Assembly (NCBI GenBank): GCA_035390125.1
Contig: DAOOTD010000001.1
Coordinates: 241,936 to 305,935, forward strand
Reading direction: 5' to 3'
From: Candidatus Moraniibacteriota bacterium
Lineage (GTDB): Bacteria; Patescibacteriota; Minisyncoccia; Moranbacterales; GWC2-37-73
DNA: 64,000 nucleotides
A program made the translations under genes and the position numbers. Below are positions 5,436 to 61,900 of this stretch, one piece after another; the first letter of the stretch is position 1; each line of letters starts with the position of its first letter. The notes beneath the pieces were generated by a model. It did not search any database. It had not been told where the DNA came from and was given only the letters and a program-made list of their open reading frames with translations.

Positions 5436-5800
5436 AAAATTTATCAAGGCATCTCATAAGCCGGATTCTGTCAAGGATAATCATTTATCTATTTCCGATA
5501 TTGCTATTGGAAATTAAGCGACACTTCCAGTACTTCCTAGGGGAGTGCTAGATACGGTCTTGCATCCGGGTAAGGTTTTAGCCGTTTCACCTCTTATATT
5601 ACTATAAGAACTTACCCTATTTTTTCAATAGGATAATTTAATTCTTTCGAATTAAATCGTCTCTGCTCGCACCTCTAAAATTACTTTCGACGGGAGTTAC
5701 CCGCTACCCCGCTACCTGTCATTTATAAGTGACAGGTGAATGTCCGGACTTTCCTCTCTAATAAAAAATTAGAGCGATTATCTCAATGCCTTGATAAATT
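5436..5800 (-). ncRNA. rnpB: RNase P RNA (bacterial type A-like)
   Basis: The minus strand carries GAGAGGAAAGUCCGGAC (P4 5' strand) and GACAGAAUCCGGCUUAU (P4 3' strand). It also has a GGUGCGAGCAGAGACG J11/12-like block and AAGAGGUGAAACGGC. A 15-bp terminal P1 pairs AAUUUAUCAAGGCAU (5800-5786) with 5436-5452. A P3-like hairpin CUCUAAU-UUUUU-AUUAGAG is present. Confidence 0.8.
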
Positions 5801-5937: not shown

Positions 5938-7821
5938 TTAATATTTTTCCTTAAAATACCATTCATAAACCTCTTTAGTAACTGGTAAAGCGCTAGAATG
6001 TCCTTCTCCGCCCCCTTCAACAAGTACTACCATTGCAATCTGAGGATTATTATATGGTGCAAATGATATAAACCAACCATGCGTTTGATTATTTGACCCA
6101 AATTGTGCTGTACCAGTTTTTCCCGCAATATCAACTGGAAGATCCTTGAGCGACTGTGCTGTTCCTTCTGTCACAACCTGGCGCATACCTTCTCTAATAA
6201 CATTTATTATATCAGGAGAAACAAAATTCGAACGAATAACTTGTGGCTGTATTAAAGTCAATATTTCATCACCTTTTTTTATTTGAGAAACTATATGAGG
6301 TTTAAAAAGCGTACCACCATTCGCTATGGTTGATGTATAATTAGCAAGCTGAAGAGGAGTTGCTGTTATATATCCCTGACCTATAGCAGCATGATAGCTA
6401 TTACCAATAGACCATTTTTCCCCAATTTTATTCTGTTTCCATTGTTCATCTGGAATAAGCCCACTAGATTCTCCCCCTATATCTATGCCCGATAATTGGC
6501 CAAATCCATATAAGTTATACCATTTTTTCATTCTGTTCATGCCAAGCCCTTCAATTTTACCATAACCACCTCCGATAGTATAAAAAAATATATCATTACT
6601 TTCAGCAATAGCTTTGCGTACATCGCTTGGAGCATGCGCCTTCCAATCACCAAAGGAATAATTGCCTATTTTGAGCACTCCACCTAAACCACTTATAATT
6701 GTTGAGGGGGTTATAATGCCTTCAGATAAAGCAGCTGTAGCAATTACAGGTTTTATTGTAGAACCAGGAGGATATTCACCGGATATTGCACGATTAAAAA
6801 GTGGCTTATTTGAATTATTTATTAATTTTGAATAATCGGTTTCTGATATTTTTTGAGCAAATAAATTATTGTCATAACTTGGTATACTTATCATAGCTAA
6901 CACTTCTCCATTTTGTGGATTTATCGCAACTGCTGCAGCAGTTTTTGTTTTTGTTTTTTCCAAGATATCATTAAGACTGTCATATATTTTTTTTTGCAAA
7001 TTAGCATCAATGCTTAATACTAAATCACTCCCAGGATTTGGATTTATTATTCCTAATTCCCGCTTTATATTTCCCATTGAATCAACCTCCATTTGATTAG
7101 CGCCACGAGTACCCCTTAAAAATTGTTCGTACGACTTCTCTATGCCATGTTTACCAATATAATCAGTAAGTGAATATCCTTGTTCTTTTTCGAGTTCTTT
7201 TTTTTCAATTTTTCCTTCATATCCCAAGATATGAGAAAATATTGAACCATCCATATATGAACGAATCGCTGTTTTTTCAATACTGACACCTGGAATAGAA
7301 TTATTTTTTTCAAGCAAAACAAGAGATTCATCTTGAGAAATGTGTTCTTTAAGTAAAACAGCATTGAGAGAATTTGAAACACTATTTTCTAATTTTGTTC
7401 GAATTTCATTTTCGTCCATTTTTAAAACATCTGAAACAATATTCGCTATTTCTTTTATTTTTTGTTTATCTTTTGGAATGTCGGCTGGTATAATAACAGC
7501 ATCGATACTTGGGATATTACTAACTAAAGCATTGCCACTTCTGTCAAAAATTCTTCCCCTTGATGCTTGTATAACAACTGATCGAATGCTATTGCCTTTA
7601 GAAACATCTTTGTAATAAGCTCCTCTTATTACTGTCAAAAAAAATATCCTGCAAAAAAGAGCTCCGAAAGCAATTAAAATAATCCACCAAAAAACAGTAA
7701 ACCATTTTTTCTCAAAAGGTTTTTCCATTCTGGCAGCTTCTTTTTCTGTAGCCGTAAGCACATAATCTTCAATCTCCATCCCGGAAAAAAACTTTATAAT
7801 ACTACGTTTACGTTTTGGCAT
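5938..7821 (-). CDS. mrdA: penicillin-binding protein 2 (elongasome transpeptidase)
   Basis: N-terminal TM; RGRIFDRSGNALV; SXXK as STIK; KTGTAQ. Immediately downstream of mreBCD. Confidence 0.8.
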   Translation of the reverse strand: MPKRKRSIIKFFSGMEIEDYVLTATEKEAARMEKPFEKKWFTVFWWIILIAFGALFCRIFFLTVIRGAYYKDVSKGNSIRSVVIQASRGRIFDRSGNALVSNIPSIDAVIIPADIPKDKQKIKEIANIVSDVLKMDENEIRTKLENSVSNSLNAVLLKEHISQDESLVLLEKNNSIPGVSIEKTAIRSYMDGSIFSHILGYEGKIEKKELEKEQGYSLTDYIGKHGIEKSYEQFLRGTRGANQMEVDSMGNIKRELGIINPNPGSDLVLSIDANLQKKIYDSLNDILEKTKTKTAAAVAINPQNGEVLAMISIPSYDNNLFAQKISETDYSKLINNSNKPLFNRAISGEYPPGSTIKPVIATAALSEGIITPSTIISGLGGVLKIGNYSFGDWKAHAPSDVRKAIAESNDIFFYTIGGGYGKIEGLGMNRMKKWYNLYGFGQLSGIDIGGESSGLIPDEQWKQNKIGEKWSIGNSYHAAIGQGYITATPLQLANYTSTIANGGTLFKPHIVSQIKKGDEILTLIQPQVIRSNFVSPDIINVIREGMRQVVTEGTAQSLKDLPVDIAGKTGTAQFGSNNQTHGWFISFAPYNNPQIAMVVLVEGGGEGHSSALPVTKEVYEWYFKEKY

Positions 7822-7823
7822 AA

Positions 7824-8339
7824 TTATTTTTCTAATTTAAAGAATTCTTTGATTTTTTTAATCAGAAAAAATAAAAACAAAAACAATATCGAATTAGACA
7901 TAATCTGAAAAGCTATATGTTTCAGACTGCCGAATATTTTCCAATATAAATGAAGATCTTGAAAATTCCAGACTGTTATTAAAGCTATTATACTTTTAGA
8001 AAGAAGAGTGGCAATGATAACAAACATGAACAGCAATACCCACCCTATTCCTTTAACCTCCAGGGACAAGCGTCTGGAAAAAAAACTCACAAAATAAACA
8101 ACTAATGAGAATATTAAAGCGTGTTCTCCTATTACTGAATAAGAAGCTAAATCATATAATATACCGAGAATTATAGACCAGCCTAGGAATGCAAAAAATC
8201 CATCAATTACAGATAGCACCAGCACTAACATTAATACTATATCTCCATTAAAATTTGACCCTAAAATAACCGGCAATATACTGGTTTGAATTACTATTGC
8301 TATAAAAAAAATTAACAAATAAATAAGCTTTTTTTTCAT
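7824..8339 (-). CDS. mreD: rod shape-determining protein MreD (polytopic membrane)
   Basis: 171 aa with about 5 TM helices. Position between mreC and PBP2. Confidence 0.5.
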   Translation of the reverse strand: MKKKLIYLLIFFIAIVIQTSILPVILGSNFNGDIVLMLVLVLSVIDGFFAFLGWSIILGILYDLASYSVIGEHALIFSLVVYFVSFFSRRLSLEVKGIGWVLLFMFVIIATLLSKSIIALITVWNFQDLHLYWKIFGSLKHIAFQIMSNSILFLFLFFLIKKIKEFFKLEK

Positions 8340-8341
8340 TA

Positions 8342-9151
8342 TTATTTATTGTTTTTAATAACAAAAACCATGCGTATATTTGAAATTTGAAGCGGAGCTG
8401 TTAGCACAGCTTGTTGAAAAAGATGGTCTTCGGATTGATGTATTTCTTGAATAGTCCCGACATAAAGTCCGCGTGGAATTTCGCCGCCAATGCCAGACGT
8501 AATTACACTATCACCTATACTAATAGAATCTGTTTGAAGCACCATATCGAATATAATTCCAAGTCCGTATTCTCCTTTTGCAACCCCTTTGGCACCGCTT
8601 TCAACGTCTATTATATTTACAGTGCTTTTAGGATTAGTCAGGAGCATTACCTGTGAACTTTTTCTATTAACTTCATATATACGCCCTATTATAATTCCTT
8701 TAGAAACAATTACTGGCATCCCTGGAAAAATTCCATCTTCGCTTCCTTTATCAATCTCCAGCCAATTGCCGGTGCCACTTGGATCATAGCTAACTATAAA
8801 AGCAGCGGATAAATCATATTTGTCACGTGGAATCAGATTTAATTGTTCGCGAAGTGTTGTATTTTCATTTTTTATATCACTAATTGATGCATTTTCAAAT
8901 AAAAGTACTTGATTATCCCTGATAAGTTGTTCATTTTCGCTTTTAAGTTGATCTATTGATATGATAAATTCCTTAATGTTATTAATTCCAACAGAAAATG
9001 AATAGAAAAACTTTTGAAAAGGTTTTAGTGAGGCTAAAAAACCAGAGCGAACAGGTTTAAAAATATCAGAAGGATTTAAAAAAATAAGCAGCAAAAATAA
9101 TGCTGCAATTATAATAATTTTGAAAAATTTAGTATGAATAAATTTCTGCAT
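8342..9151 (-). CDS. mreC: rod shape-determining protein MreC
   Basis: N-terminal TM, coiled-coil region, and a C-terminal beta domain (GMPVIVSKGIIIGRIYEV...). Confidence 0.7.
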   Translation of the reverse strand: MQKFIHTKFFKIIIIAALFLLLIFLNPSDIFKPVRSGFLASLKPFQKFFYSFSVGINNIKEFIISIDQLKSENEQLIRDNQVLLFENASISDIKNENTTLREQLNLIPRDKYDLSAAFIVSYDPSGTGNWLEIDKGSEDGIFPGMPVIVSKGIIIGRIYEVNRKSSQVMLLTNPKSTVNIIDVESGAKGVAKGEYGLGIIFDMVLQTDSISIGDSVITSGIGGEIPRGLYVGTIQEIHQSEDHLFQQAVLTAPLQISNIRMVFVIKNNK

Positions 9152-9165
9152 TTATTTTATAATTT

Positions 9166-10275
9166 TTATTTGAACGATTTTTCTCTTTGATCCTCCACCA
9201 GAACATCTTTAAGTGTTTCTATATCTTCAAGAACTATGCCGACACCACGAACAACTGCAGTTAGGGGATCCTCCATCATTCTTACTGGCATTTCAGTCTG
9301 ATTTGCAACCAATTTATCCAAGCCACGTATCAAGCTTCCACCGCCAGCTAAAATAATTCCTCTCTGCATTATATCAGAAAGCAATTCTGGAGGTGTTTCT
9401 TCAATAACTGTTTTAATATTATTAATTATGATTCTTATTGAACGTGAAATTGCTTCTCTGATTTGTTCATCATTAATAATAGCTTCTTTAGGCAATCCAC
9501 TGACTAAATCACGTCCACGCACTGAAATTTTTAAAGACTCTTTAGGTGGATAGGCACTTCCAACGGCAATCTTTATATCTTCAGCTGTTTTTTCACCTAT
9601 TAGTAAATTAAATTCATCGCGGCAATAACGTATAATATCTTCATTCATTTCATCACCTGCTACTCTTAGGCTTCTAGCACTTACCACTCCGCCTAGGGAA
9701 ATTACGGCAATTTCTGATGTTCCACCACCAATATCAACAACCATATTTCCTCTTGCATCTGTAACTGGAAGACGAGCTCCTATTGCAGCAGCCATTGGCT
9801 CTTCTATAAGAAATGCTTCACGGGCTCCCGCATTTAAAGCAGCATCGACTACAGCTTTTTTTTCAACTTCCGTAATGCATGAAGGAATACCAATTAATAT
9901 TCGCGGGCGCGGTGAAAAAGAAAAAGAATCTTTGTTTATCTTTTCAACAAAATATTTAAGCATCTGTGTTGTTACTTCAAAATCGCTAACAACTCCATCT
10001 ACAAGTGGCCTTGTTGCAACAATATGACCTGGCGTTTTTCCAACCATACGTTTAGCTTCTCTTCCAATTGCAAGAACCTGCCCGGTACGCTTATTGATTG
10101 CAACTACTGATGGTTCATTAATTACAATTCCCTTGCCCTTAAGATAAACAAGTGTGTTGGCGGTTCCTAAATCAATACCTATATCACGAGATATGTTATT
10201 GAAAAAATTCCCAAAAATACGTTGAAATATGTTTTTTACTTTTTCCCCCATAATATATTTATTTAAATAACACAA
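9166..10275 (-). CDS. mreB: actin-like rod shape protein MreB
   Basis: GIDLGTANTLVY...; DIGGGTSEIAVISLGG; actin/Hsp70 fold motifs. Confidence 0.9.
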   Translation of the reverse strand: MCYLNKYIMGEKVKNIFQRIFGNFFNNISRDIGIDLGTANTLVYLKGKGIVINEPSVVAINKRTGQVLAIGREAKRMVGKTPGHIVATRPLVDGVVSDFEVTTQMLKYFVEKINKDSFSFSPRPRILIGIPSCITEVEKKAVVDAALNAGAREAFLIEEPMAAAIGARLPVTDARGNMVVDIGGGTSEIAVISLGGVVSARSLRVAGDEMNEDIIRYCRDEFNLLIGEKTAEDIKIAVGSAYPPKESLKISVRGRDLVSGLPKEAIINDEQIREAISRSIRIIINNIKTVIEETPPELLSDIMQRGIILAGGGSLIRGLDKLVANQTEMPVRMMEDPLTAVVRGVGIVLEDIETLKDVLVEDQREKSFK

Positions 10276-12620: not shown

Positions 12621-13547
12621 TTAACTTTTATTTTCAGTAAGTTTCATTTTTTTATAAACACTTCCAGCTGCAACTGCACCTTCAGCTACTGCTGTAGCAA
12701 TTTGGCGAAATTTATTTGAACCTGTTGTGACATCTCCTGCTGCATAAACATGTTCAAGATTTGTGCTCTGATCAGATTTTACAATTATATAATCATGTTC
12801 ATCAGTTTTAACCCCTAATTCCTTAGCAACTACAACCCCAGGCGCAGAACCTATTTCTATAAAAATACCCTGCGTCTCGATTTCTTTTTTTTCTCCATTT
12901 TTTGTTGTATATGATAGTCCAGAAACTTTTTCATCTCCCAATATCTTTTCAATCTCGCTGAAAGATTCTTCTTTTATTTTTTCGTTACTCTTTATTTTTT
13001 CTTCCCAAGCTGGTTCAAAACATTTTGTCCCTTCTTTGTATAAAAGATGTACGGAATTCGCAAATTCAGCCAGATGAAGCGAGGCCGTGGCTGCGCTGTC
13101 GCCTCCACCTATGACAGCCACATCTTTATTTTTGAAAAACATTGCATCACAGATTGCACAATAGGAAATACCTCTGCCAATAAATTTTTCTTCATTTTCA
13201 ATATCAAGCTTTCTTGGATTCATACCAAGCGCAAATATAATGGATTTGCATTCATATTTTTTGTCTTCGCCAATAAAAACAGCAAACCCGCCAGGAACAT
13301 TATCAATGTTTTCCACTGTCGCAGATATTATTTCTCCTCCCAGAGCTGTTGCTTGTTTTTTAAAGCGTTCTGTTAATTCCTGTCCTGAAATTGATTCAAA
13401 ACCAGGATAATTTTCTATCTGCCAAGCTTTTGTAATCTGTCCTCCGATTTCAGCTCCTATAACAAGATGTTTAATTTTATAACGAGATGCATAGATAGAA
13501 GCTCCTAGCCCTGCTGGACCTGCGCCGATAATAATAAGATCGTACAT
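12621..13547 (-). CDS. trxB: thioredoxin-disulfide reductase
   Basis: IIIGAGPAG FAD motif; CAICD redox-active disulfide; GGGDSA NADPH motif. Confidence 0.9.
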   Translation of the reverse strand: MYDLIIIGAGPAGLGASIYASRYKIKHLVIGAEIGGQITKAWQIENYPGFESISGQELTERFKKQATALGGEIISATVENIDNVPGGFAVFIGEDKKYECKSIIFALGMNPRKLDIENEEKFIGRGISYCAICDAMFFKNKDVAVIGGGDSAATASLHLAEFANSVHLLYKEGTKCFEPAWEEKIKSNEKIKEESFSEIEKILGDEKVSGLSYTTKNGEKKEIETQGIFIEIGSAPGVVVAKELGVKTDEHDYIIVKSDQSTNLEHVYAAGDVTTGSNKFRQIATAVAEGAVAAGSVYKKMKLTENKS

Positions 13548-13626
13548 AATTTTATATTGCCTTTTTTAATATTTATCATTGTTTAGTAATTATAGTATAA
13601 ATATGTTTTTAAACAAAATTTTAAAA

Positions 13627-13655
13627 AGCCTCGGAAAAATCCAAGGCTATTTTTA
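13627..13655. terminator. hairpin terminator between trxA and trxB
   Basis: AGCCTCGG-aaaaat-CCAAGGCT with T/A runs on both sides. Confidence 0.4.
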
Positions 13656-13669
13656 AAAATTTTCCTCTT

Positions 13670-13987
13670 TTACATTAAACTTTCCAGCTCTTTCTTGAGT
13701 ATTTCTTTATTTTGCACGCCCGAAAATTCTTTTATAATTTTTCCGTTTTTGAATATTTTAAGAGAAGGAATAGACATAACTTCAAACTTTGAAGCAGCTT
13801 CTCCGTTTTCATCCACATTACATTTGCCTATTCTAATTTTTCCTTCCATCTCCTTGGCTAGTTCATCTATAATTGGTCCCATTATCTGACAAGGTCCGCA
13901 CCAGGACGCCCAAAAGTCAACTAAAGTCACCTTGTCGTTTTTTATAACCTCCTGTTCAAAATTTTCATCAGTAAATTCTATAGCCAT
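13670..13987 (-). CDS. trxA: thioredoxin
   Basis: WASWCGPCQ active site. The tracked ORF starts 15 codons earlier, but MAIEFTDENF is the likely true start. Confidence 0.85.
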   Translation of the reverse strand: MAIEFTDENFEQEVIKNDKVTLVDFWASWCGPCQIMGPIIDELAKEMEGKIRIGKCNVDENGEAASKFEVMSIPSLKIFKNGKIIKEFSGVQNKEILKKELESLM

Positions 13988-14116
13988 ATAACTTAAATGA
14001 TAAGCCTTGATAACCTTCATGAAAAAGATCACCCTGCTTATTTTTATTAATTATTATATTAATGTCCTTTTATAAATAACTAACAATTATTAGCATTAAT
14101 AAAAAATTATCTTTAT

Positions 14117-27437: not shown

Positions 27438-27884
27438 TTAGTAGATTCCCAGTTTGCCAAGCTGTTCTGCGATTTCATCGGTATTTTTTTCGGCGCCTGT
27501 TTTATATATCTTCCACTTCTTTTCATCCCAAATTTCCAATCTATTGAAAAGTCCCGCAATCGTAACTGAGCGTCCAAGCCCTGCATATTCTTTAAGATAT
27601 TCCGGCAGTAATACTCTGCCTTGGCTGTCTATGTCACTTTCAATTGCGCCAGCCAGCATTAAACGCACAAAACTTCTGGTAGTTGATTCGCCCATTGGCA
27701 ATGTCCCTAATTTTTCCGCTAAATCTTTCCATACTTTAGCTGGATACACAAATAGGCATTTGTCTAAACCGCGAGTGATTACAACCTTGCCTCCCAATTC
27801 TTTTCTGAATTTTGAAGGAAGCGCTAAGCGCTTTTTTGGATCTATGCTGTGTTGATACTCTCCGATAAACATATTGTTATTCAA
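27438..27884 (-). CDS. mraZ: transcriptional regulator MraZ
   Basis: MFIGEYQHSIDPKKRLALPSKFR plus a second DXXXR repeat. Confidence 0.85.
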   Translation of the reverse strand: MNNNMFIGEYQHSIDPKKRLALPSKFRKELGGKVVITRGLDKCLFVYPAKVWKDLAEKLGTLPMGESTTRSFVRLMLAGAIESDIDSQGRVLLPEYLKEYAGLGRSVTIAGLFNRLEIWDEKKWKIYKTGAEKNTDEIAEQLGKLGIY

Positions 27885-28038
27885 AATACCGATTTATTTT
27901 TGGGAGCACAAAATCATAACTACCCCTTTATAGCAATTATTTTTTTATTGTAATAATATGGGGATGCGATTTCTACAGATACAATATTTGTTTGCGTATT
28001 TGTAGTTTTTAATCGCAACATGTATTACATCGTATTCA

Positions 28039-28100
28039 CCACTTTATTCCACTTTACTACATTATGATGTAATTTTACTCCACCAATCTACATACGTCAA
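28039..28100 (-). promoter_or_regulatory. Pmra promoter (TTGACG-17-TAAAAT) with two MraZ-box direct repeats (AAAGTGG at 10-bp spacing)
   Basis: Minus-strand -35 at 28095-28100 and -10 at 28072-28077. AAAGTGGAATAAAGTGG lies at 28039-28055, between the -10 and mraZ. Confidence 0.5.
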
Positions 28101-28177
28101 CACTTTTTTAACAATAAAAAAATGGCTTTAATAAGCCATTTTTAAAAAGTTATCCACAGTTTTTTTCTATAAAAAAT

Positions 28178-28303
28178 CTATTCTTCTATTTCTTTCATTT
28201 CTTTACCACAGCAGACCAAAACACCGCCACCAACAGTGATAACTTCAACTTCATTTCCGCAAATTTCGCAGCGATATATTTCGCCTATTTTTTCGACTGC
28301 CAT
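28178..28303 (-). CDS. desulforedoxin-like small protein (41 aa, Cys4 iron centre)
   Basis: Translation is [41 protein letters not shown], matching the desulforedoxin pattern YKCELCG...GGG.LVCCG. It is below the ORF-track size cutoff. Confidence 0.65.
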
Positions 28304-28322: not shown

Positions 28323-29513
28323 TTATTTGTACGATTTATTTTTATTTTTCAGATATGAATAATATTCTTCGTTATTGCTGTTTTTTATTGAATATTTTTC
28401 AATCGCTTTTTTACAAGCTCTTTCGCCAATTTCTTTCCTTAAATTTTCATCAATAACAAGCCTCTCTATTTTTTCAAACCATTCTTTTTCTCCACTCGCA
28501 ACAAAGCCATCAATTCCATCCTTAATTGCTTCTCTGAAAGTCTGAGTTGCTGCTGCTATAGTTGGAATTTTCATTATTCCAGCTTCAAAAAATTTCAGTT
28601 CTGAACGAGCTTCGCAAAACGGATTCCCGATTTCCAGTGGCGCTAAATTAATATCCACATTGGCAATATTGGCAAAATGTTTTTCTCTAGGAACAAAAGA
28701 CAGCCTTATTGTCCTACTGGAAAATTTATTAAGCCCATTCTCTATATCCAGCGGCCCTGCTAAAAATAATTCGACATTTTCATATTTTTCCATGATCTGT
28801 ATCAATGGCCCAGTGATAGTTGCGAAATCTTTATTATGGCTGGATGTTCCGCTGAAATAACCTATCCTAACAGCTTCGTTAGCCTTTAGCTTAGTTAGCT
28901 TTTTAGCTTCAAGGATTCCAGCAGCTATTTCAATATCTTTTTCAGAAAGCTTATTGGAAACAACAAAAACTTTTTTGCCATATTCTTTTATTTTTTCCGC
29001 CAGAAAAACAGTTGAGGTTGTACAAACTTTAACATAAGGATCTCTAAGTATTTCTCCGCCTATTCCATTTTCAAAAAATTTCTTTTCAAATTCATTGGCA
29101 TTTTTGAAAAAGTCCTGCTGTTTGATATATCCGGGATCAAAAAGCAGATCATCAGTTTCAAAAATAATTTCCTTATTTTCTTTCTTAAGCTTCTTTATAA
29201 ATTTTTGGATTTGCGGAATATAGGAAACCTTGTGAAAAACAAAAATGTTGAACTTGTCCGCACAGGACATCAGCATTGGATGTTCCTGGACAACAGAAGA
29301 GCATTTAAGCCCATGTAGACTCAATTCCTCTGCTACATTAAGCACGCGATAACGTGAGCTATCCCCCACTATTCCGCTGGAAATGAACAATACGTCGCCT
29401 GATCCAGCAGGATGCAACATTGAAAAGAAAACCTTTATAATCTTTTTCAGCCCATAAAAAAACCCTTCTTGCCCGAAAATGGCTCTTATTTTTCCTAAAT
29501 ACCTTTTAAGCAT
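28323..29513 (-). CDS. glycosyltransferase, GT4-like (GT-B fold)
   Basis: C-terminal E-x7-E region ([18 protein letters not shown]...DGIDGFVA). Confidence 0.65.
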
Positions 29514-45023: not shown

Positions 45024-45932
45024 TTAGCTTATCTGAGCCTTTTTTACAAGTGTTTTAAAATTTTCATTAACCGTCTTTTGAATATCTGCAATTACTGATT
45101 TATTTTTTGGAACAAATAGATGTTTAAAACGTCCTTGGGTTTTTAAAAATTCTTCGACTGGCTTTGGATTTTTAGGTGTGTAATTAATTACGTAATTTCC
45201 ATTTTCTATTTCATAAAGTGGCCAGAAATTTGTTTCAGTGGCTAATTTTCCAATATTGACATACTGAGACGTTGGGAATTTCCAAAGATTCGTGCATGGC
45301 TGAAGCACTAACAAAAATGATGGTCCCGGAGTTTTTAAGGCTTTTTTGGCTTTCTTTTTTAGATCAGAAAGATATGCAACATTAGCCTGTGCCAAATAAG
45401 AAATATTATGCGCTTTCACAATTTCCATTAAATCTTTTCTTTGCTTTGATTTTCCGAAAGAATCACTGCCAGCTGGTTCCGTTTCCGTGTTAGCACCAAA
45501 AGGTGTTCCGCCAGATCTTTGTCCGCCCGTATTCATGTATCCTTCATTGTCATAACAAACATACAGAAAATCGTGTCCACGTTCCAACGCTCCAGAAAGA
45601 GCCTGGAGACCGATATCATATGTTCCCCCATCGCCACCAAAGGCAACAATTTTAGCAGGCTTTTTTAGTTTCTTGTTTTTCATTAATGCCTTTTGGGCAG
45701 CATCTATTCCAGATGCCGTTGCCGCTGCATTGCCAAAAGCGCTATGGATATAGGGAACTTTCCAGGAAGTATTCGGATATATAGTTGTAGTTACTTCCAA
45801 ACATCCTGTTGCATTGGAAACAATCACAGGCTCATTTGTTGCACCAAGTACTGTCCGTACAATAGCCGGTATCCCGCATCCTGCGCAAGTCGCATGACCC
45901 GGAGCTAATTTTTTAGTTAAATCTTTATTCAT
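45024..45932 (-). CDS. porB: pyruvate/2-oxoacid:ferredoxin oxidoreductase beta subunit (TPP-binding)
   Basis: GHATCAGCG...GGDGGTYDIGLQAL (TPP/Fe-S region). Confidence 0.85.
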   Translation of the reverse strand: MNKDLTKKLAPGHATCAGCGIPAIVRTVLGATNEPVIVSNATGCLEVTTTIYPNTSWKVPYIHSAFGNAAATASGIDAAQKALMKNKKLKKPAKIVAFGGDGGTYDIGLQALSGALERGHDFLYVCYDNEGYMNTGGQRSGGTPFGANTETEPAGSDSFGKSKQRKDLMEIVKAHNISYLAQANVAYLSDLKKKAKKALKTPGPSFLLVLQPCTNLWKFPTSQYVNIGKLATETNFWPLYEIENGNYVINYTPKNPKPVEEFLKTQGRFKHLFVPKNKSVIADIQKTVNENFKTLVKKAQIS

Positions 45933-45937
45933 GCTTT

Positions 45938-47104
45938 TTATTTCAGATATTTTATTTTATTGCTTATTTCCCCTTCTTCTAGATCCTTAAAAACTTTTTC
46001 AATATCTTTTTGTAATGTGTCACGCCCACCAAGACCATAAATATAGCTGGCAATTTCATTTTTGTGACTGCCGGCGTGATGCAAACTATTTACAATATCC
46101 TGATATAATGGCGGATAGGCTCCTATGGAAATAGCCCTGTCTAAAACAGCAATTTTTCTTACATGCGCTATTTCGCGTCCAATTTCCCTATATGGGAAAG
46201 GCCTGTATAGTTTAATATTCAAAAGTCCGACTTTTTTTTCTTTTTTGCGTAAACTATCTATAACATCCTTAGCGGTTCCTGCGGTTGCACCCATCATAAC
46301 TATTACATAATCTGCATCCTCTAATTTATATGTTTCAAAAATCCCATGTTTTCTTCCGGATATATTCATATACTCTGCACACAATTTCTTATATTCCGTT
46401 TTTGCTTTTTCTATTGCTTCTTCCTGGTCCAGCTTGAAATCAAAATATGAGTTTTGCAGAGCCAAAGCTCCGAATGTCACGGGACTATTAAAATCAAGCA
46501 ATGATTTTTCAGCTTTTCTGTCACCCAAAAAATTTTTTATTGATTTATCGTCACAAATTTCGAGCCTTTCTGTCGTATGCGAAGTATGGAAACCGTCCAT
46601 AATCGACATTACAGGCAAATCAATTGATTCGGATAGCTTCAAAGCTATTATTGTATTGTCATAAGCCTCCTGCACATTTTCGGAGAAAATTTGGACCCAG
46701 CCAGCTTCGCGCACAGCCATGACATCACCATGCTCACCATGGATATTAAGCGGAGCACTTAGAGCGCGAGAACTAACGCACATTAAAATTGGAAGCCTTA
46801 GCCCACTGGCAATCGGCAACATTTCTGCCATATATAAAAGTCCCTGCGAACTGGTTGCTGTTATTGCTCTTGCACTCGCTGCTGAGGCTCCAATTGTGGC
46901 ACTCATGGCACTATGTTCTGATTCAACCTGAACTATTTCTGTTTTGACTTTTCCATCAGCTTTCATTTTGGCATATGTTTCTATAATCGGAGTCTGTGGA
47001 GTAATAGGATAAACAGCCATTACGTCAGGATTAATTTGACGTAAAGCCTCAGCCATCGCTGCACCACCAGTCATTGCTTCAATTTTTTTATTATTTTTAT
47101 CCAT
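45938..47104 (-). CDS. porA: pyruvate:ferredoxin oxidoreductase alpha subunit
   Basis: Pfor domain I/VI-like sequence. Operon context. Confidence 0.8.
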   Translation of the reverse strand: MDKNNKKIEAMTGGAAMAEALRQINPDVMAVYPITPQTPIIETYAKMKADGKVKTEIVQVESEHSAMSATIGASAASARAITATSSQGLLYMAEMLPIASGLRLPILMCVSSRALSAPLNIHGEHGDVMAVREAGWVQIFSENVQEAYDNTIIALKLSESIDLPVMSIMDGFHTSHTTERLEICDDKSIKNFLGDRKAEKSLLDFNSPVTFGALALQNSYFDFKLDQEEAIEKAKTEYKKLCAEYMNISGRKHGIFETYKLEDADYVIVMMGATAGTAKDVIDSLRKKEKKVGLLNIKLYRPFPYREIGREIAHVRKIAVLDRAISIGAYPPLYQDIVNSLHHAGSHKNEIASYIYGLGGRDTLQKDIEKVFKDLEEGEISNKIKYLK

Positions 47105-47371
47105 TTATTTTTTCATAATAATAGCTTTTACAGGGCAGACTGATGCGCAGACTCCACAGCCTTTGCAATAATCATAATCGATTTCTGCAACTTTCTTGTT
47201 TTTATTTTTTGATTTTTTATTCTTCAATTCAATAGCTGCTTCCGGGCAATATGAAACACAAATGCCACATCCAATACATTTTGATATATCAATTTCTGGC
47301 TTCATATAACGCCAATCTCCTGTTTTGGAAGAATTTTTAATACTATGCTTTATAATAGCTCCTTTTTCCAT
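47105..47371 (-). CDS. porD: pyruvate:ferredoxin oxidoreductase delta subunit (2x[4Fe-4S] ferredoxin)
   Basis: CIGCGICVSYCP and CKGCGVCASVCP. Confidence 0.85.
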   Translation of the reverse strand: MEKGAIIKHSIKNSSKTGDWRYMKPEIDISKCIGCGICVSYCPEAAIELKNKKSKNKNKKVAEIDYDYCKGCGVCASVCPVKAIIMKK

Positions 47372-47379
47372 AATTTTGT

Positions 47380-47952
47380 TTATATTTCATCATAACCAAC
47401 TTGCATGGCTTGTATTGTTTTTTCTGTAAGTTCTTTTCCGATTTTAGGAGTAAAAACTTTCCTGAAAATCTGCATAGCATTTTCTAGGGTTATAATTTCT
47501 GAAATTTTTATAAAATAACCCATGAGCACCATGTTGGGATTTGGATTGCTAGTAATTTTCAGTGCAATTCCTGTTGCATCTATAGTGCGGATTTTACCTT
47601 CAAAATTAGGAACTTTTTTACGGATTTCTTCAGGATTTTTTTTTGAGTTAACGACCAATATTTCATCTTTATCCAAGTTTTTCACAACATCCTGGCAATC
47701 TATGACTGTTTCATCTAAAACAACCACAACATCCGGATCAATAACTGGCTCCTGGGTCCTGATTTCTTTTTCTGAAATTCTTAAAAACATTCTAGTTGGG
47801 GCACCTGATCTTTCCGGACCAAAAAATGGGAACGCTTTGACATATTTTCCTTCCAAAATAGCCGAATGCGCAATAAGCTCAGAAGCTGTTTTAGCTCCCT
47901 GCCCTCCACGTGCAAAAAAAATGACTTCAAATGTATCCTTATTGAATTTCAT
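47380..47952 (-). CDS. porG: pyruvate:ferredoxin oxidoreductase gamma subunit
   Basis: ARGGQGAKTASELIA..., typical of the Por gamma subunit. First gene of the operon. Confidence 0.8.
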   Translation of the reverse strand: MKFNKDTFEVIFFARGGQGAKTASELIAHSAILEGKYVKAFPFFGPERSGAPTRMFLRISEKEIRTQEPVIDPDVVVVLDETVIDCQDVVKNLDKDEILVVNSKKNPEEIRKKVPNFEGKIRTIDATGIALKITSNPNPNMVLMGYFIKISEIITLENAMQIFRKVFTPKIGKELTEKTIQAMQVGYDEI

Positions 47953-61304: not shown

Positions 61305-61378
61305 TGGCACGGGATAGAGGAATCGAACCTCTGCCAACGGTTTTGGAGACCGCCGTACTACCACTATACGAATCCCGC
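61305..61378 (-). tRNA. tRNA-Trp (anticodon CCA), CCA encoded
   Basis: GCGGGATTCGTATAGTGGTAGTACGGCGGTCTCCAAAACCGTTGGCAGAGGTTCGATTCCTCTATCCCGTGCCA. Confidence 0.7.
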
Positions 61379-61400
61379 ATTGTCACTTTTACATGACAGG

Positions 61401-61565
61401 TTATTTCATTTCCTTGTGCAGTGTATGTTTTTTACAAAATTTACAATACTTATTCATTTCTAACTTCTCTTTGATCTTCTTCTTGTTGCGTGAAGTATAA
61501 TATGTAATTCTTTTGCATTCGCTGCATTTCATCTTTACCAAATTTTCCTTAGTTTTTGTTGCCAT
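61401..61565 (-). CDS. rpmG: 50S ribosomal protein L33
   Basis: Translation is MATKTKENLVKMKCSECKRITYYTSRNKKKIKEKLEMNKYCKFCKKHTLHKEMK (CxxC...CxxC zinc ribbon). Below the ORF-track cutoff. Confidence 0.8.
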   Translation of the reverse strand: MATKTKENLVKMKCSECKRITYYTSRNKKKIKEKLEMNKYCKFCKKHTLHKEMK

Positions 61566-61611
61566 AAAATTTTTATATATATAAAAAAAATTAAAAAATT
61601 ATAAATTTCTG

Positions 61612-61683
61612 AGCCCAGAGGGAGAATCGAACTCCCGACATCATCCTTACCATGGATGCGTTCCGCCACTGAACTATCTGGGC
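61612..61683 (-). tRNA. tRNA-Thr (anticodon GGU)
   Basis: GCCCAGATAGTTCAGTGGCGGAACGCATCCATGGTAAGGATGATGTCGGGAGTTCGATTCTCCCTCTGGGCT. Confidence 0.75.
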
Positions 61684-61711
61684 GTCCATGGCTTTTTATT
61701 TTTCATTTTGA

Positions 61712-61798
61712 TGGTGGGCAGTGAGGGATTCGAACCCCCGAAGGTACAAGACCGGCTGATTTACAGTCAGCTGCGATTGACCACTCCGCCAACTACCC
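61712..61798 (-). tRNA. tRNA-Tyr (anticodon GUA), long variable arm, CCA encoded
   Basis: GGGTAGTTGGCGGAGTGGTCAATCGCAGCTGACTGTAAATCAGCCGGTCTTGTACCTTCGGGGGTTCGAATCCCTCACTGCCCACCA. Confidence 0.7.
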
Positions 61799-61828
61799 TT
61801 TTTATATAAAGATTTTTCTATCTTTATG

Positions 61829-61900
61829 AGCCGACTAAGGGATTCGAACCCATAACCTACTGTTTACAAAACAGTTGCTCTACCATTGAGCTAAGTCGGC
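61829..61900 (-). tRNA. tRNA-Thr (anticodon UGU)
   Basis: GCCGACTTAGCTCAATGGTAGAGCAACTGTTTTGTAAACAGTAGGTTATGGGTTCGAATCCCTTAGTCGGCT, with one T-stem mismatch. Confidence 0.65.

Follow-up and report, generated by a model that had tools for sequence, protein, structure and literature searches.

By its sequence, the dx gene described here is a real and conserved gene that encodes a four-cysteine iron protein, a desulforedoxin, and it occupies positions 28178 to 28303 of the window (the whole 64,000-nucleotide stretch of DNA that was analysed). We consider it likely that dx is a stand-alone desulforedoxin gene in a transcription unit closed by a terminator, and that its product, an Fe(Cys)4 carrier, would act as an electron shuttle in defence against oxygen and ROS. 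The original prediction of a 41-aa desulforedoxin-like gene at this place is correct to the last residue of the translation. It gave no strand; the 41-codon ORF that translates exactly to the predicted peptide is on the minus strand, and the same positions read on the plus strand give a meaningless translation.

Features of the dx locus

The features to which the argument refers are listed here in the order in which the minus strand reads them.

28323 to 29513, minus strand: glycosyltransferase-family gene of 396 aa, an ORF with weak Glyco_trans_1_4 and Glycos_transf_1 matches
28178 to 28303, minus strand: dx, stand-alone desulforedoxin gene of 41 codons, with ATG at 28303 and stop codon TAG at 28180-28178
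28150 to 28158: perfect DnaA-box 9-mer, TTATCCACA on the plus strand and TGTGGATAA on the gene strand, 19 nt past the dx stop
28111 to 28143, minus strand: hairpin AAAAATGGCTT-ATTA-AAGCCATTTTT (28143 to 28118) followed by a T-run, from a terminator scan, starting 35 nt after the dx stop
28072 to 28100, minus strand: mraZ/dcw promoter-like site TTGACG-17-TAAAAT, with 10 of 12 consensus matches the best sigma-70-like site in the region
28055 to 28039, minus strand: direct repeats AAAGTGG-AAT-AAAGTGG with a 10-bp period, just downstream of the -10
27872 (ATG) onward, minus strand: mraZ, followed by rsmH, ftsL, ftsI, and murF, the dcw operon after the promoter

Coding status and conservation

The conservation in related genomes that the original prediction proposed to check is borne out: the small ORF recurs at the same position in relatives, and values of dN/dS between 0.06 and 0.13 in the dx frame, at dS of 0.6-1.2 among five distinct coding sequences, indicate strong purifying selection. 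All nine sequences in our protein alignment are 41 aa long, with the four cysteines, the GGG, and the LVCC invariant, and the eight dx homologs found in 90% clusters are also 41 aa each, at 78-88% identity. The description of the gene as unannotated was right for ORF lists with a 60-aa floor but not for public gene callers, which already label the exact protein with PF06397 in JGI and Logan assemblies (at least 4 of 16 public contigs). A JGI contig of 278,679 bp is among the public contigs that carry the exact protein, and in one source a relative at 88% identity bears the name 'desulfoferrodoxin-like iron-binding protein'.

No Shine-Dalgarno motif stands before dx, and its A/T-rich leader resembles those of the neighbouring genes. 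This is normal here, because only 9 of the 57 window genes have GGAG, GAGG, or AGGA within 22 nt before the start and most leaders are A/T-rich, a pattern which suggests that translation initiation in the window is largely independent of Shine-Dalgarno pairing.

Family, metal site, and predicted fold

A search with the profile of Desulfoferrod_N, the family named in the original prediction, places dx firmly in it: the peptide scores 57.7 bits against PF06397 (E 8.9e-16), 35 bits above the gathering score of 23 bits, and covers profile positions 4-35 of 36. It also passes the cut-off of NCBIfam TIGR00319, the desulfoferrodoxin FeS4 iron-binding domain (46.3 bits against 36.05), and the best PDB match by sequence is the desulforedoxin of D. 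gigas (1CFW/1DXG, E 2.7e-9), followed by desulfoferrodoxin (Dfx) N-terminal domains. The four cysteines, C12, C15, C31, and C32, form the pattern C-x2-C-x15-CC with the last two adjacent, a ligand spacing identical to that of the Dx centre in SORGOdb, CXXCX15CC (PMC3116461). An AlphaFold2 model built from nine close homologs (mean pLDDT 84) has the desulforedoxin fold: in a Foldseek comparison with the PDB the top match is 1dxg_A, at an rmsd of 0.6 A over 35 columns and a target TM of 0.92, the next ranks are five Dfx chains, and all remaining matches have E > 1.

With the 36-aa D. gigas protein (1DXG, 1CFW) dx shares the PF06397 domain, the single-domain form, the cysteine spacing, and the GGG-x-LVCCG turn. 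The original prediction described the match to the desulforedoxin fold as nearly residue for residue, which is accurate for the metal-binding and turn motifs (C-x2-C-G ... GGG-x-LVCCG), which are identical, but too strong for the whole, where 17 of 31 aligned residues agree (55%; 48% in the Foldseek alignment). Compared with the D. gigas sequence, dx is longer by three residues at the N-terminus and ends in an acidic tail, KEMKEIEE; its host is probably a CPR bacterium, uncultured and low in GC, whereas D. gigas is a sulfate reducer. Centre I of desulfoferrodoxin, or 2Fe-SOR (1DFX, 1VZG, 2JI1; Dx-SOR in SORGOdb), is homologous to dx and has the same Fe(Cys)4 motif, but dx lacks the SOR catalytic domain and therefore cannot reduce superoxide by itself. 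Rubredoxin is likewise a small Fe(Cys)4 one-electron carrier and a likely functional analogue of dx, but it belongs to a different family and binds its metal with two CxxC pairs, whereas dx has one CxxC and an adjacent CC; the Pfam scan of dx returned no rubredoxin family at E <= 10. Zinc-ribbon families all score below their thresholds (LysW 15.4 against 27, Zn_ribbon_8 15.2 against 34.4, and RpoP 16.3 against 89 bits).

Distribution of stand-alone desulforedoxins

An exhaustive HMMER scan of 1.84 billion representatives returned 722 proteins at E <= 1e-3. Among the best 150 of these 722, taken as 50%-identity representatives, 122 are at most 100 aa long, and 116 of those short proteins have exactly one CxxCx15CC, with a median of 12 residues past the motif; thirteen of the 150 are Dfx-sized (101-140 aa), and there are a few tandem Dx proteins. 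The tandem proteins, such as P0011 (73 aa), P0023 (93 aa), and P0014 (195 aa), string together two to four desulforedoxin-like modules, in some of which the Cys motif is degenerate. Eleven proteins of more than 300 aa, among them giant multi-repeat proteins that ranked at the top of the scan, were set aside as false positives since none has the Cys motif (P0009, for example, consists of GNVYVAD...GGG repeats). Stand-alone ORFs of roughly 40-50 aa occur in metagenome-assembled genomes (MAGs) of Omnitrophota, Bathyarchaeota, Actinomycetes, Thermoleophilia, Planctomycetia, and Deltaproteobacteria. The stand-alone class is thus widespread and well populated, and dx is an ordinary member of it; our literature search for desulforedoxin or desulfoferrodoxin in CPR bacteria or Moranbacteria found nothing specific.

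The probable transcription unit and its boundaries

Only 19 nt separate the end of the glycosyltransferase gene from the start of dx, and our scan of the window found neither a promoter-like nor a terminator-like site between them, so that the glycosyltransferase gene is probably co-transcribed with dx. We also found no dx-proximal promoter upstream of the gene in the window or in locus L027, where the upstream gene, which is FtsX-like, is divergent. The same glycosyltransferase family stands upstream of dx in L026, L028, and L031, and in these loci a gene for a 66-67-aa protein, absent from the window, lies between the two (L026:997-1200, L028:491-691, L031:465-668). This small protein (MEQEILNKL..KIDAIYVSVEK..) is thus conserved in three relatives that are more diverged, belongs to no Pfam family, and has a hydrophobic C-terminal half with which it probably spans the membrane. 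In L005 dx follows two genes without a Pfam family.

On the downstream side, the DNA right after dx varies among relatives, and conservation begins at the DnaA box and extends over the block that follows. The DnaA box, which precedes the mraZ -35 by about 50 nt, is unchanged in every relative examined, while the DNA just before it cannot be aligned; it may provide a DnaA input to the dcw promoter. An origin of replication (oriC) beside dx is ruled out, as the window shows no enrichment of DnaA boxes (2 perfect, and 22 at up to one mismatch where 20.3 are expected). The hairpin that follows folds as RNA at -13 kcal/mol (z = -3.4) and is present in every relative whose sequence reaches that far. 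Its loop-closing pair covaries, being T-A in the window, C-G in L011, and A-T in L028-L030, which supports a structural role, most simply that of a terminator for the dx unit; we regard the hairpin as a probable intrinsic terminator that would end dx transcription.

Beyond the hairpin the promoter-like site TTGACG-17-TAAAAT is unchanged in all five sequences of the spacer alignment, and both of its hexamers recur unchanged in L028-L030. The original prediction had placed dx upstream of the dcw promoter, and so it is: this site, read from 28100 to 28072, comes next before mraZ, and as a putative promoter it would lie outside the dx unit and mark its downstream boundary. The AAAGTGG repeats just after it and a GTGGAG at 28078-28083 (minus strand) that overlaps the -10 are equally unchanged in the five aligned sequences. 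We take them to resemble MraZ operator boxes, which suggests autoregulation of the dcw operon. The mraZ leader (27873-28065, minus strand) is unusually long, at about 193 nt in the window and 205-340 nt in relatives, and blocks within it, especially 27975-28003 and 27902-27927, appear more conserved than dx synonymous sites. RNAalifold predicts hairpins in the leader with 8 pairs kept through double changes, in an alignment of only 7 sequences; a short Shine-Dalgarno-like AAAGGGG followed by an ATG in the leader is not conserved as an ORF, and the dx-mraZ spacer, leader included, has no Rfam match. Taken together, dx, which starts 19 nt after the glycosyltransferase gene, would be the last cistron of a short unit that ends at its own terminator, ahead of a separately promoted mraZ/dcw operon.

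Relatives and host

The MraZ proteins of close relatives are 88-93% identical to that of the window. The labels of the two nearest reference MAGs conflict, and one is probably wrong: L012 (DAIUDF010000003.1, MraZ identity 89%) is assigned to Candidatus Moraniibacteriota, of the Patescibacteria/Parcubacteria group, and L011 (CAZFCX010000032.1, MraZ identity 92%) to an uncultured member of the Bdellovibrionales. The low GC content of the window (34%) and the scarcity of Shine-Dalgarno motifs in it fit a CPR host, and the organism is probably a low-GC, fermentative Patescibacteria/CPR bacterium resembling Moraniibacteriota. Elsewhere the window carries a class A bacterial RNase P RNA (5441-5793, minus strand, 122.5 bits), mreB-mreC-mreD-PBP2 at 5938-10275, and a cluster of four tRNA genes at 61308-61900 (minus strand).

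Proposed function and partners

By analogy with the D. gigas protein, the dx product would be a homodimer in which the four cysteines of each chain bind one iron as a distorted tetrahedral Fe(Cys)4 site. Alternating between the Fe(III) and Fe(II) states, it would carry single electrons at a potential near 0 mV, around which desulforedoxin-like centres lie (PMC7482061). A centre near 0 mV is far above ferredoxin potentials, so dx would be an electron sink outside the ferredoxin energy chain. It could serve as a rubredoxin-equivalent shuttle that accepts electrons at low potential from an NAD(P)H or ferredoxin oxidoreductase and passes them to an oxygen- or ROS-detoxifying enzyme, for example a rubrerythrin or a one-iron superoxide reductase, which would be encoded elsewhere in the genome. 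No settled physiological role is known for a stand-alone desulforedoxin, even that of D. gigas.

Several comparisons are relevant to such a role. In the desulforubrerythrin of Campylobacter jejuni a desulforedoxin-like N-terminal domain works with a rubrerythrin peroxidase module, to which it is fused, and has a high potential of +240 mV (PMC7482061); dx differs in being a free protein with no rubrerythrin nearby. That fusion is paralleled by the adjacent genes of an Omnitrophota locus (L013:3201-4718), where dx is flanked by a flavodoxin/4Fe-4S protein on one side and by a rubrerythrin (PF02915 at 107.5 bits, with a rubredoxin-like domain) on the other and the dx stop adjoins the rubrerythrin start, in what looks like an oxidative-stress gene cluster. 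This is the one locus with an oxidative-stress neighbour among eight distant stand-alone loci; the other neighbours tested were of unrelated or unknown kinds, namely DUF5661, SIMPL, FBPase, and three proteins without a family match, and in L019 a pyridine-nucleotide-disulphide oxidoreductase lies about 1 kb from dx on the opposite strand. In T. denticola tde1754, which its authors call a desulforedoxin, is induced by oxygen (PMC2965109), and rubrerythrin-like families are found in some CPR lineages (PMC8406219). Pfam tables that cover the window and roughly 10 kb of flanking DNA on each side list no SOR, rubredoxin, rubrerythrin, or flavodiiron gene; a thioredoxin and a TrxB-like flavoprotein form a pair at 12621-14020 of the window.

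The original prediction joined dx to a por operon as signs of an anaerobic, ferredoxin-based redox metabolism. The operon is real, with POR gamma, Fer4 delta, POR_N alpha, and TPP beta at 45024-47952 on the minus strand, but it is 17 kb away and unlinked to dx, and the metabolism, plausible for such an organism, is suggested rather than demonstrated by these genes.

Alternative explanations

This kind of domain is most familiar from the N-terminus of desulfoferrodoxin, the TIGR00320 equivalog model matches dx residues 7-40, and the gap of 293 nt on the 3' side of dx is about the size of a SOR domain; dx could on these grounds be the remaining N-terminal piece of a two-domain desulfoferrodoxin (2Fe-SOR) that has decayed, a pseudogene fragment, a reading that is almost certainly wrong. 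Only profile positions 5-38 of 125 are matched by TIGR00320, for 39.7 bits against a cut-off of 146.9. A tblastn search of the window with a complete Dfx (from L021) recovered the Dx part alone, on dx itself, and a search of the whole window with the SOR domain gave a best match of E = 0.32, lying elsewhere. Translation of the 293-nt spacer meets stops in all three frames, and the spacer is filled by the conserved terminator, the promoter, and the mraZ leader. Nor does dx behave as a fragment in its relatives, all of which keep the same length and stop position at a dN/dS around 0.1. As far as sequence can tell, the decayed form is refuted, and dx is a single-domain polypeptide that has a start and a stop of its own and is fused to neither a SOR nor a rubrerythrin module. 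The original prediction had called it a stand-alone desulforedoxin, and the PF06397 score, the gene's own stop, its terminator, its conserved length, and the lack of a SOR remnant all agree with that description. It is unlikely, too, that this stand-alone protein is a desulforedoxin-fold metal module with no redox job, whether a structural knuckle around zinc, a buffer or chaperone for metals, or an adaptor for another protein. In vitro the D. gigas desulforedoxin also takes up metals other than iron, several PDB entries with its sequence are among the matches of dx, neither the window nor roughly 10 kb on either side of it encodes a redox partner, and LysW and Zn_ribbon_8 show a weak, sub-threshold likeness. 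Those zinc-ribbon scores, however, are below cut-offs of 27-34 bits where the PF06397 score is far above its own, the GGG-x-LVCCG sequence, which beyond the cysteines is typical of the iron protein, is invariant, and the arrangement of adjacent cysteines is one peculiar to the Fe(Cys)4 centre of desulforedoxin (PMC3116461).

The position of dx raises the question of a tie to cell division, through co-regulation with the dcw operon or a redox input into its expression, for example by read-through of the terminator. In all 12 close-relative loci that extend far enough mraZ lies downstream of dx, L028-L031 carry part or all of the mraZ/dcw control block, and the conserved, perfect DnaA-box 9-mer sits between dx and the terminator. 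We nonetheless find the tie highly improbable. A conserved terminator and an independent promoter separate dx from dcw, and in L011 and L012 a GIY-YIG gene that looks like a mobile insertion (L012:563-847, PF01541 at 53.9 bits, and the corresponding stretch in L011) stands between dx and the control block and disturbs neither. The relatives are close, so that a shared gene order is expected by descent, and no mraZ match turned up in the distant stand-alone loci L013-L020; for both reasons we read the place of dx beside dcw as neighbourhood and not function. A different proposal, which we think very unlikely, is that in this minimal lineage, which resembles Moraniibacteriota, dx works without any of the classical acceptors (SOR, rubrerythrin, flavodiiron), for instance as the sole rubredoxin-type carrier for an envelope- or division-related enzyme. 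Such a role would explain why dx is held between the glycosyltransferase unit and the dcw control region with its DnaA box and MraZ-type boxes, and, if true, would be the first physiological role for a stand-alone desulforedoxin.

Significance

The family, fold, and motif of dx are textbook matter and stand-alone copies are abundant in public data, so the import of the finding goes little beyond correct annotation. It does show that a 60-aa ORF floor loses a real gene for a well-understood metalloprotein. For the organism itself, a probable CPR bacterium with a sparse inventory, dx contributes one small redox protein, and it hints at some handling of oxygen or ROS in an organism with a POR/ferredoxin-type metabolism.
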